NCBI GenBank assembly: GCA_963664435.2
Contig: CAXXKM010000002.1
Span: 576,001-640,000 of the forward strand
From: Longimicrobiales bacterium
GTDB lineage: Bacteria; Gemmatimonadota; Gemmatimonadetes; Longimicrobiales; Gaopeijiaceae
DNA: 64,000 nt
Direction: 5' to 3'
The notes under the pieces are model-generated. The model saw only the letters and a program-made list of their open reading frames with translations. It was not told the DNA's origin and made no database searches. The translations under genes were made by a program, and so were the position numbers. This document shows positions 25,365-28,682 of the stretch, in pieces; position 1 is the first letter of the stretch, and each line of letters starts with the position of its first letter.

Positions 25365-26467
25365 CTATCGGGCGGCTCCCTCTCCGACGGTCATCCGGAA
25401 TGCGGTGAGCACCGGAAACGGGTCCGCGGCCAACGTGTAGATGGCGTCAGGTGCGATCGCAACGCCCCGGGCCCAGTCGGGCAGAAGCACCGAACCCAGA
25501 TATGAGCCCTCCGCCAGGCTGAACAGATCCAGCAGGTGCCCGCGGACGTTGCTTTCCCCGTAGTAGTGAACGAACAGGGTATCCCCGCGCGCCCCGAAGT
25601 CCATCGCGGTGAAGACGGTCTCGGTCGCTTGCGTCGTTCGGGTGGTCACCGTTCGGCCATCAACCACTTCTTCACGTACGTAAGTCTGGATTCCGGGAAA
25701 ATCGGCATGCTCCGCATAGGGGAATCCCGCCGCTTCGCGGTCCCCGCCCATACGCCACCAGCCATTCCCCGCCGTGAAGCCGAACACCCATCCCGCGCCG
25801 TGAAGCCGAACACCCATCCCGCGCCCGCGCCGACCACCCTTCCCTGGCGCGCAATTCGCGACAGATCCCGGTAGGTCCGCGAGGGAAAGCCCACCGAATC
25901 GACAACGACTCCGTTCTGGTCGGAGACCAGAAACGCCGGTTCCGCCAAGTGCGTCAGCACGACCAGGCTGCCGTCGTCCAGGCTCGCAACGGATTCCGGC
26001 GCCATGCCGCTCAGGTTCGTCTCGCCTGCCAACCGGCCATCGGGGTCAATGATGGTGAGCCGCTCGTTTACGTTGTCGACGACTGCGGCTCCGCCGCCCG
26101 GCAGCTGCACGATGCCCCGCACCGTCCGGAACTCTCCCGGCCCCCGACCTGCCCGGCCGAAGGTCCACCGTACTTCGCCTTCCGCCGAGATTCGGATCGC
26201 GGCGTTGCGCCCCCCGTCCCACAGAGTCACCCCCTCCGCGCCGGCCGACATCCAGTATGGATTGAGCAGAAGCGTATCGGCTGCGGTTCCGCCGATGGAC
26301 CACAGCGTGTCCATGTCGGCGGGGAGGAAAGTCCGCTCGGCAACGACATCCTCTTCCGACCATAGCTCCGTGGGGTCGGATTGCACCTCTGCGCTGCACG
26401 ACGTGCACAATACGCCTGCGAGAAGGACGGGAAGCGCAGCAGGGCGCCCGGGAGGGCTCGGACCCAT
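25365..26467 (-). pseudogene. 6-bladed beta-propeller lipoprotein, frameshifted by a 26-bp tandem duplication
   Basis: Signal/lipobox VLCTSC; FGRAGRGPGEF motif; GWVFGFTA is encoded twice in different frames, and the C-terminal half continues to the stop at 25365. Confidence 0.75.
25771..25822. repeat. Perfect 26-bp tandem duplication
   Basis: GCCGTGAAGCCGAACACCCATCCCGC at 25771-25796 and 25797-25822. Confidence 0.95.
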
Positions 26468-26475
26468 GAACTCTC

Positions 26476-26814
26476 CTACCGCGAATTCTTCGCGACCAGC
26501 AGACAGAGGAGCAGCGTCACCAGCGGGACCACGGCCTGCGCCGCCTGGCCGTTCGTGACCAGCGTGTAGATGGCGCCGAGCATGACCGGGATCATGGCCG
26601 CGGCGGCGAGGAAGCGGGTCTTCTTCATCAGGAAACCGACGCCCGCGGCCGTCTCGGCGACGCCGATCAGGTATTGGAACCAGCCGGAATATCCCCACAT
26701 CTCGAACTGCTCGACCATCGCGCCCGTCAGCTTCATGACGCCGTTCAGCAGGAAGAGCAACGCCAGCAGGATCGATGCCACCAGAATGCCTTTTCCGGAT
26801 CCCTTGTCCGCCAT
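26476..26814 (-). CDS. DoxX family membrane protein
   Basis: LLALLFLLNGVMKL...FEMWGYSGWFQYLIGVAETAAG...MLGAIYT. Confidence 0.82.
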   Translation of the reverse strand: MADKGSGKGILVASILLALLFLLNGVMKLTGAMVEQFEMWGYSGWFQYLIGVAETAAGVGFLMKKTRFLAAAAMIPVMLGAIYTLVTNGQAAQAVVPLVTLLLCLLVAKNSR

Positions 26815-26900
26815 TTCATGCTCCATGAGTTGCAGGGTCTTGCGGGTGAGCGACGAAAGTAAGGCGAAGCCGGGGTCCCGGACACCGTGACGGTGGGCGG

Positions 26901-27242
26901 CTACCTCGAGTAATTGGCCACGACGACAGCCAGCAGAAACGCCAGGGCGGGCATGACGATGCGGTCGGTGTCGCCGGCCCGCAGCAGCGTGTAGAGCGCA
27001 CCGAGCATCACGGCCATGACGGCCAGCGCGCCGTACAGCCGCGTCCGCCGCCGCATCAGGGCGAGGCCCGCGGCCGTTTCCGTGACGCCGATGAAATAGA
27101 AGAACCAGACCGGGTAGCCCCACACCTCGAACCGATCCCACCACCCGCCGATGAGCTTCATGGTACCCGTCATCAGAAACACCAGCGCCAGGAGAACCGA
27201 CACGGTCGGAATCACCTGTTCCGGCACGTCCCTGGTCGACAT
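26901..27242 (-). CDS. DoxX family membrane protein (tandem paralog)
   Basis: LLALVFLMTGTMKL...FEVWGYPVWFFYFIGVTETAAG...MLGALYT; RBS AGGAG. Confidence 0.82.
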   Translation of the reverse strand: MSTRDVPEQVIPTVSVLLALVFLMTGTMKLIGGWWDRFEVWGYPVWFFYFIGVTETAAGLALMRRRTRLYGALAVMAVMLGALYTLLRAGDTDRIVMPALAFLLAVVVANYSR

Positions 27243-27269
27243 GGCTCGCTCCTGGCGCTCGCGGATACC

Positions 27270-27545
27270 GTGCATGGGGCCCAAGGGAAGGTACGCCCTG
27301 AACGGCATCCGGGACACGGTTCCGATGGCCCGTCAAGCCGCGCCCGGTACCGTGCCAACCCTGACGGTGCCGCGTTGCTGCTCGCGGTCGCGCTAGCGGT
27401 TGGATACAGTACGGTCGGCGCGGGGCCGGTCAGCGCCACCGCCGCGCGCGACTGCGATTCGGATCCGTACTGTTTCTGGACACCTATCGACGATTGCGTG
27501 ACCCAGCCGTGCTGGACCAATGCGAACATCTGTTGTTGCCCGTGA
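27270..27545 (+). CDS. Small secreted Cys-rich peptide precursor (start uncertain)
   Basis: AALLLAVALAVGYSTVGAGPVSATAA followed by RDCDSDPYCFWTPIDDCVTQPCWTNANICCCP* (7 Cys in 32 aa). Confidence 0.65.
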   Translation: MHGAQGKVRPERHPGHGSDGPSSRARYRANPDGAALLLAVALAVGYSTVGAGPVSATAARDCDSDPYCFWTPIDDCVTQPCWTNANICCCP

Positions 27546-27566
27546 TTCTTTCGCCGTGAGCAGAGT

Positions 27567-28682
27567 ATGGCCGGAATGACCGGCGGCGGCATATCGGTCG
27601 GGGCATCCACGCTCGCCGCACGCCTGGCGGTCCTGCTTCTCGCCGCCTGCGCGGAGGCGGAGAGTCCCGCCGCCGCTCCCGTGACCGCGACCCTCGAAGA
27701 GGTGTTCGCCGTTGATGCCGTCCTGCAGCTTGGCGAAGATCCCGCCGACTCGATTGCGGAGATCGGCGACTTCGTCGAGCGGCGGGACGGAAGGTACGTG
27801 ATCGGCGACCTGTTCCTGCCCCGCGTGCGAAGCTATGACGAGGAGGGGCGGCTGGAGGCCGGCTTCGGGAGGTTCGGAGACGGTCCTTTCGAGTTTCGGC
27901 AGATCAACGCACTGGTCGAGAGGCCGTCCGAGGACATCGTGGTCCTGGACTCGCGGCGGGCCCGGTTGACCTTCCTGACCAGTTCCTTGGCTCCCGATAC
28001 TTCCGCAACGTTTTCCGCGGCTCTCCTGGATGCTCGGGCGCTCGGGCCTGACCTGCTCTTGCGGATGATTACGGGAGACCCTGAAGAACGTCTCTTCGCC
28101 CGCCCTCCACTCCTGTACCGGATGACGGCGCCGGAATTGGAGTTGGTCTGGAGCAGCTACGAACGTCCGTTCTCCGACTCCGAGAGGCCCTATTGGGGCG
28201 CATTTGCGCGCTTTCCGATCGCGGTCGGCGGCGACTCGACGTTTGTCATGTCGGGTCTAGAGTACCCCGTCACGATCATCGACGGCGCGGGAGAGACCGT
28301 CGGCACCCTTGGGACCCCCTCCGACTCGTTCCGGCCCATTCAGGTGTTGGAGTCGGGCGCGTTCGCCAACCCCGCGGCCTACGGCACTACGCTGCGCGAG
28401 TTTCTGGGGACGTTCGACATCATCGACCGCATCGACGTGGTCGGTCGACATCTGGTCCTGACGCGCGCCCGGTTCGACCCTGAACGATCACTGCCTCCCT
28501 TCCGGGTTCTGCACACGTCGCTTGAGGTCTACGACCGGCACACCGGAACCAAGCTCTATGAGGATGTCCCGCTTCCAACCGGATCCAAGGTCTTGGGCGG
28601 AGGCCGGTCCCTGTACCTTCTCTTGGACAGGGACTTTCCGCCCTGGCGGATCGCGAAGCTCCGGTTCTTGGCGGAGGACTGA
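27567..28682 (+). CDS. 6-bladed beta-propeller lipoprotein
   Basis: Lipobox LAAC; FGRFGDGPFEF motif; beta-rich repeats; starts 21 nt after the peptide stop. Confidence 0.75.
   Translation: MAGMTGGGISVGASTLAARLAVLLLAACAEAESPAAAPVTATLEEVFAVDAVLQLGEDPADSIAEIGDFVERRDGRYVIGDLFLPRVRSYDEEGRLEAGFGRFGDGPFEFRQINALVERPSEDIVVLDSRRARLTFLTSSLAPDTSATFSAALLDARALGPDLLLRMITGDPEERLFARPPLLYRMTAPELELVWSSYERPFSDSERPYWGAFARFPIAVGGDSTFVMSGLEYPVTIIDGAGETVGTLGTPSDSFRPIQVLESGAFANPAAYGTTLREFLGTFDIIDRIDVVGRHLVLTRARFDPERSLPPFRVLHTSLEVYDRHTGTKLYEDVPLPTGSKVLGGGRSLYLLLDRDFPPWRIAKLRFLAED

Follow-up and report, generated by a model that had tools for sequence, protein, structure and literature searches.

A truncated, inserted piece of a miniprotein and beta-propeller cassette beside a resident DoxX gene pair in a Longimicrobiales genome

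Do a gene for a small Cys-rich peptide, two beta-propeller lipoprotein genes and two DoxX genes, found side by side in the genome of a Longimicrobiales bacterium, form one functional system? The question is raised by positions 25365–28682 of a 64,000-nucleotide stretch, here called the window (G000 C2:576001–640000), which belongs to a genome of 4.5 Mb in 3 contigs (96% complete). An earlier, sequence-only reading of this DNA had proposed such a five-gene module. We found that three layers have come together at this locus by coincidence. A five-gene system is not supported, the cassette that underlies it is real, and the copy in the window is broken. Our preferred reading, to which we assign a probability of roughly 0.6, is that what lies in the window is an inserted, truncated part of a cassette in which a CxxC enzyme would fold the peptide and a propeller lipoprotein would bind it as a receptor or neutraliser. 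Below, L-numbers denote relative loci, X-numbers sequencing runs, and P0172 a representative of the peptide family.

When positions 25300–28750 were compared with 41 genomes, they separated into two blocks, which were never side by side in any relative. The inserted segment (approx. 1.38 kb; 27367–28748, plus strand) holds the complete first propeller gene, preceded by the 3′ part of the peptide gene. At the left junction (27365–27368) the host flank extends to 27366 and the peptide gene begins at about codon 11, with two bases (CG) of microhomology and loss of the right half of a host hairpin; the right junction lies within 28700–28748. The site is empty in L051–L054, L060, L061 and L063, where the DoxX flank leads to the next host gene with neither the peptide nor the first propeller in between, and it is occupied by a different propeller gene in L059. 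Both states were present in run X14: on one contig, from a near-identical strain with 31 differences across 2,067 bases, positions 27366 and 28749 are linked by 123 other letters (an empty site), and a second contig carries 27365–28691 after the native start of the peptide gene, the two being of similar depth (96 versus 86).

An assembly artefact was considered and rejected, since the junction 27366/27367, at which the sequence-only reading had advised a check of the reads, is bridged by contigs of six runs (X1, X5, X7, X8, X9 and X13), and the duplication within the second propeller gene (see below) is spanned in three. The insertion may have been of the fragment itself or of a complete cassette that was trimmed afterwards. 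RNA-mediated (5′-truncating) mobility was also considered, since many fragments retain the 3′ end only; it is not claimed, because a 3′ scar left by the second propeller gene in L059 shows that plain deletion can yield the same pattern, and a target duplication was not observed. The genes had been described as divergently transcribed; the strands are indeed as stated, but the layout arises because the insert lies antisense within a series of minus-strand genes.

The interval from the DoxX genes to the host gene that follows resembles an insertion hot spot, given its different contents in L059 (the other propeller gene, L059:22–1500) and L051 (approx. 250 other bases, L051:3536–3788). The hairpin is conserved in the empty alleles (L054:3440–3490, z −2.86), where it may serve the DoxX genes as a terminator or operator, and only its left half is retained in the window (27356–27366). 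Short scars of the 3′ end of the first propeller gene were found elsewhere in the host genome (G000 C2:823070–823116) and in L085–L087 and L089.

What remains of the peptide gene (27367–27545, plus strand) is a 5′-truncated gene for a putatively secreted acidic six-Cys miniprotein, encoding the rest of a signal peptide and a core of 32 amino acids (aa) with 7 Cys; its stop codon (TGA, 27543–27545) lies 21 nt upstream of the propeller ATG at 27567, as had been reported. Compared with this copy, the near-identical intact orthologue P0172 is 10 residues longer at the N-terminus, carries an insertion of two residues and differs by three substitutions, among them a Trp at the position of the seventh Cys of the window. 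The same Trp is retained in the second contig of X14. The terminal CCC, previously presented as a feature of the core, is present in the window, but only six Cys are conserved and the seventh replaces the Trp; CCC is a derived Trp-to-Cys change, and it was found in none of the 78 family members that have the six-Cys frame.

The start codon candidates are as first described: GTG 27270 and TTG 27375 share the frame of the core, from which ATG 27325 is off by one base. The frameshift suspected on this basis is not borne out, because the gene is cut at 27366/27367, with codons 1–10 replaced by unrelated host DNA. The insert lacks the CxxC gene, the ribosome-binding site and codons 1–10, which makes this a truncation, and a frameshift from ATG 27325 was rejected because that ATG is part of the host flank. 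Both the native start codon and the Shine-Dalgarno sequence are missing: anti-Shine-Dalgarno pairing is −3.3 at GTG 27270 and −5.4 at TTG 27375, compared with −10.0 in the intact orthologues of L002, L003 and L007, −7.1 in L014 and −6.3 in L015.

The frame of GTG 27270 crosses the host flank, and at 27348–27350 it is closed by TAA in X5 and by TGA in X9, X13, X14 and X20; of these runs, X5, X9 and X13 share the junction. Translation from TTG 27375 would yield a signal peptide without a charged n-region. A search of 25200–29400 for sigma-70-type promoters found none, which is uninformative, as the chance expectation is 0.3. Judging from the candidate starts, the peptide is probably no longer made in the window genome.

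The truncated gene belongs to a real coding family of predicted secreted acidic six-Cys miniproteins. The peptide is more than a chance reading frame, since its six-Cys frame occurs 3 times across all six frames of the 4.5-Mb genome and intact orthologues precede orthologous propellers in 6 of 19 loci. These 19 loci, which surround relatives of the first propeller, include 6 with an intact peptide gene (ATG and Shine-Dalgarno sequence), 3 with remnants and 10 with none. Small Cys-rich genes upstream of orthologous propellers, whose presence had been suggested as a check, were therefore found, and their Cys codons vary synonymously among the orthologues with the Cys retained, which is conservation of the coding type.

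An alignment of 19 peptides, from which L032 and L036 were left out because of their different Cys frames, revealed six invariant Cys. The profile built from it matched 86 representatives at E <= 0.001, and the frame C-x-C-x-C-x4/5-C-x6-CC is kept in 78 of them. The cores are 29–55 aa long (median 40 aa) and are net acidic in 76 of the 78 framed cases (median charge −6); at least two Trp are present in 14 and none in 33. The orthologues have a signal-like N-terminus, judged by eye, whose n-region is missing in the window copy. No Pfam or NCBIfam family was matched over the cut-off, there was no PDB sequence match, and the leads of an Atlas search were all under 0.9.

Three disulfides would be consistent with a constant, even number of six Cys separated by loops that vary. 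In a comparison of L007 with L008 the amino-acid and silent changes number 4 and 1 in the 34 codons of the core, 17 and 11 in the 363 codons of the propeller, and 3 and 4 in the 206 codons of the CxxC gene, a hint, in small numbers, that the peptide loop changes faster.

Two other candidate roles were tried. The net-negative charge of the cores argues against a membrane-lytic cationic or beta-defensin-like peptide; beta-defensin-like antimicrobial peptides carry a net positive charge, and the likeness to them is limited to the terminal C-x6-CC spacing. An amidating-lyase role for the propeller was considered as well, and only 2 of the 78 cores end in Gly.

Which genes, then, accompany the intact peptides? 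Judged by gene content, the usual cassette comprises a gene for a predicted CxxC thioredoxin-fold protein, the peptide gene and a gene for a predicted NHL-type propeller lipoprotein. We collected 32 distinct CxxC loci, leaving out duplicates and the five weakest matches (L038–L042); some were broken, and for most the flanks covered 1.5 kb. A family peptide occurs in 26 of these loci, a propeller in 31 and DoxX in none. The earlier tie between the peptide and the propeller directly behind it thus recurs across relative loci. The peptide profile was partly built from these CxxC loci, and a signal-plus-Cys scan beside a seven-row profile had found their peptides first. The order is mostly CxxC–peptide–propeller, with peptide–propeller–CxxC in L027, L031 and L101. 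Of 251 genomes in the order, 23 yielded the CxxC gene, as did, at a stricter cut-off, 13 of 301 genomes of the phylum; no copy was detectable in the genome of the window.

The CxxC protein (200 aa), whose gene adjoins intact peptide genes, has an N-terminal hydrophobic helix, a CxxC motif and a third invariant Cys (C90, C93 and C176 are invariant in 55 rows). Its AlphaFold2 (AF2) model, based on these 55 rows, has a pLDDT (predicted local distance difference test) of 88, and the best fold matches are of the TlpA/ResA/DsbE and peroxiredoxin kinds (Z 10.6; root-mean-square deviation 3.2 A; 129 aligned residues). The model predicts a membrane-anchored thioredoxin-fold protein. With the TlpA/ResA/DsbE/SdbA oxidoreductases it shares the N-terminal helix and the thioredoxin fold with CxxC; in contrast to these, it has an extra invariant C-terminal Cys and its profile has no sequence-level family match and no PDB sequence match.

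Next to some cassettes, genes for a PAS histidine-kinase-like protein and a LuxR-type regulator were noted by sequence reading (L002:1268–2904 and L064:3740–4297). They sit directly upstream of a full cassette, at a site common to L002, L007 and L008.

In the preferred reading the peptide would be exported by Sec, the anchored CxxC enzyme would set or shuffle three disulfides in it, and the propeller lipoprotein would bind it as a receptor or neutraliser. We consider each of these steps (Sec export, disulfide formation, enzyme action on the peptide and peptide–propeller binding) likely. The propeller of the window, which is intact, might then act on peptides of neighbouring cells.

The same genes could instead handle metal: the CxxC protein, as a TlpA/ResA-like reductase, would keep the Cys free, the acidic Cys/Asp/His peptide would bind extracellular copper or zinc, and the propeller would capture the loaded peptide. 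ResA and CcmG, both among the fold matches, are reducing enzymes, and the acidity of 76 of 78 cores would suit this role, but the constant, even Cys count between variable loops suits three disulfides. Sec-exported Cys peptides that act as copper buffers are known (bufferins; PMC11626156). Against this alternative, no MNIO gene was found in the host genome, and a reading of the loci brought up no metal-resistance genes, although no search was aimed at them. We regard metal handling as unlikely.

The role of the DoxX pair follows from its distribution. The two genes encode DoxX_2 membrane proteins (PF13564, E 5e-13 and 9e-13), one of 113 aa without Cys (26901–27242) and one of 116 aa with a single Cys (26476–26826), and they lie on the minus strand together with the second propeller gene, as had been observed. 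Besides being missing from the 32 CxxC loci, DoxX gave no tblastn match in the 19 propeller loci and no match in G240, a full-cassette genome that is 93% complete. Among 18 congeners the DoxX pair is present in 15 and a family peptide in 5 (3 intact), never together at one place. The DoxX pair is therefore a genus-wide resident bystander, and the help with disulfide maturation that had been ascribed to it finds no support.

With 0 and 1 Cys, the two proteins do not contain MauE's CXC motif, and the MauE profile scored below its cut-off against them; this motif is needed for MauE activity according to a preprint (bioRxiv 10.64898/2026.03.05.709764). The host genome has DsbB and three DsbA-like housekeeping genes, and VKOR was not found in it. 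The disulfide partner of the peptide is likely the CxxC thioredoxin-fold gene, not DoxX.

The second propeller gene (25365–26467, minus strand), which encodes a distantly related lipoprotein, had likewise been counted as a member of the system. It is a bystander, intact in L051–L054 and absent in L059–L063, and in the window it is frameshifted by a 26-bp tandem duplication (25762–25825). This duplication is spanned unchanged by contigs of X1, X7 and X8 and is absent in X9, X13 and X14; the X5 contig breaks at the repeat.

A five-gene system at work, in which DoxX matures the peptide, both propellers serve it and an alternative start is used, is thus largely refuted and in our view very improbable. 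In favour of such a system, six runs confirm the junction, little of the core has been lost and GTG 27270 is in frame in the window; however, the cassette loci lack DoxX, the DoxX pair lacks the motif required by MauE (same preprint), the second propeller is frameshifted, stops close the GTG frame in X5, X9 and X13, which share the junction, and the site is empty in X14. The locus shows that adjacency to DoxX can mislead.

The first propeller gene (27567–28682, plus strand) is intact and encodes a predicted 371-aa lipoprotein with an NHL/DUF5128-like six-bladed beta-propeller. The lipobox Cys28 follows a hydrophobic stretch and is conserved in at least 90% of 111 rows (by sequence only), the profile (A6) matches solved NHL six-bladed propellers over approx. 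residues 70–135 (best E 5.5e-15), and the Atlas places the protein at 0.95 with DUF5128/NHL clusters; single propeller sequences fall below the Pfam cut-offs. An AF2 model on a 7-row alignment reached a pLDDT of 34, and a complex prediction for the window propeller (A6) with the mature peptide of L002 (A7) scored 0.02, in a run whose controls did not fold.

A well-supported close clade contains 21 intact propellers: 4 belong to full cassettes, 4 (those of the window, L001, L005 and L069) follow a broken peptide gene, and 13 have nothing detectable upstream. The tree excludes L066, whose propeller is split and which retains a peptide remnant. Across 19 genomes of the genus this clade is present in 14 and an intact peptide in 3. 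Pairwise ratios of nonsynonymous to synonymous changes (dN/dS), which are rough counts, were 0.26 for the orphans of the window and L001, 0.19 for L012 and L014 and 0.25–0.63 for the other close orphan pairs, compared with 0.44 and 0.54 for two full-cassette pairs. Propellers thus outlive their peptides, with 17 of 21 close copies being orphans under purifying selection.

This survival fits a receptor or immunity role for the cognate propeller, which is our best guess from the sequence data, and with so many orphan copies under selection the window propeller may still act on peptides of neighbours. It argues against the peptide being an obligate structural subunit or plug of the propeller that is folded by the CxxC protein, as in the mau genes. 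The kinds of gene match those of the mau operon, including MauD with its CXXC motif (bioRxiv 10.64898/2026.03.05.709764), but at least two Trp are present in just 14 cores (none in 33) and no mau family of Pfam or NCBIfam was matched; such a subunit is improbable.

A further alternative is that a sponge symbiont uses the propeller as an NHL protein with a general role at the surface or in host interaction, with peptide and enzyme as an optional, often shed modulator. The genome of the window encodes approx. 59 paralogues of the propeller, of which several are arranged in tandem (six of them, for example, within C3:1278771–1291796), and the scarcity of intact peptides relative to the clade in the genus points the same way. 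On the other hand, the deeper branches of the propeller tree (midpoint root only) are mostly full cassettes, which suggests that the cassette came first. We consider this alternative quite unlikely.

Several points weigh against our preferred reading of the locus and the cassette. Just 4 of the approx. 59 propeller paralogues had an upstream Cys-rich secreted open reading frame (ORF), so propellers may have roles unrelated to peptides. A family peptide is lacking from 6 of the 32 CxxC loci, two of which (L032 and L036) have another Cys-rich secreted ORF. Oxidases, reductases and peroxiredoxins tie in Z-score, and the fold matches therefore favour no catalytic direction for the CxxC protein. 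The dN/dS counts come from GC-rich DNA and include the time before peptide loss, and the window core differs little from P0172, which leaves room for weak translation from TTG 27375. The proposed function as a whole is drawn from gene context and fold.

Other signal-peptide ORFs were seen upstream of other propellers of the same genome. Two, placed directly before their propeller genes, encode a four-Cys pattern (CxxxC ... CxxxC; C1:1092507–1093007 and C2:833394–833636, both plus strand) and look like cargo of integrative elements, as, judged by sequence reading, an AlpA-like gene lies near the first and integrase-like and MobC-like genes flank the second. A different six-Cys ORF (C2:390245–390649, plus strand) lies upstream of another propeller, near a permease-like gene. 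Elsewhere in the window, 28761–29273 (minus strand) encodes a secreted-looking protein of 170 aa without a Pfam match, found at the same place in congeners, and 45574–45656 consists of a 23-bp tandem repeat (3.6 copies, 93% matches).

Does the cassette belong to a known system? In Bacteroidota, NVEALA (PF14055) and DUF5128 (PF17170) neighbourhoods combine a small protein with a six-bladed propeller and are not known to have been characterised. They resemble the cassette in having a small exported Cys protein directly before a propeller lipoprotein; the cassette differs in its six-Cys acidic frame and its dedicated CxxC gene, and only one of the 19 members tested gave an NVEALA match, with an E of 0.45 and 10.7 bits where the cut-off is 27. 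The mau genes include the propeller MauB and MauA, a Cys-rich light chain that is longer and has a conserved Trp pair. A propeller, a small exported Cys-rich protein and a CXXC thioredoxin-like helper are common to both, whereas the cassette has a core of 29–55 aa with no conserved Trp pair, no MauE with CXC and a propeller that survives alone; membership in MauA is not indicated by any Pfam or PDB match.

Bufferins (PMC11626156) are Sec-exported Cys peptides, as the family peptides are predicted to be, and DoxX lies near the peptide in the window by accident; for bufferin 1 that paper describes DoxX as dispensable. MNIO (DUF692, PF05114) gave 0 matches in the 96%-complete host genome, with a positive Caulobacter control. 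NHLRC2 also pairs a thioredoxin-like domain with a six-bladed NHL propeller, in fused form, and PMC6107167 reports no conserved operon in 7 bacterial genomes. Unlike NHLRC2/SOQ1, the intact cassette loci read have separate genes, for proteins predicted to be exported, with the peptide in between; longer fused forms were not searched for in a protein database. The cassette is thus not a member of the bufferins, mau, NVEALA or NHLRC2. By analogy, it would most plausibly work as a disulfide-peptide cluster with its own oxidoreductase and a partner lipoprotein. No description of it was found in open PubMed Central or bioRxiv texts, and it may be mentioned in supplementary tables.

The titled relatives are almost exclusively Gemmatimonadota/Longimicrobiales genomes. 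Sponge metagenome is the label of several of the runs in which the stretch occurs, and among the 24 runs listed no RNA run contains it. The family comprises at least 86 divergent miniproteins of apparent disulfide type, with a dedicated thioredoxin-fold partner and without a Pfam, NCBIfam or PDB counterpart. If the propellers are receptors or immunity proteins, the cassette would provide a ligand class for some of the abundant, functionless DUF5128/NHL propeller lipoproteins and would explain the hoarding of orphan copies in these genomes. A wider view, which we offer as a tentative possibility, is that Gemmatimonadota, sponge symbionts above all, may conduct peptide signalling or warfare by means of fast-varying acidic three-disulfide miniproteins, each with a folding enzyme and a propeller receptor. 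Cells might shed the peptide and keep or spread propellers against the peptides of their neighbours, and the window would then represent an orphan-making step. The locus itself contributes the orphan pattern and a set of full, truncated and empty alleles within one species; these alleles make a receptor or immunity role of the propellers testable.

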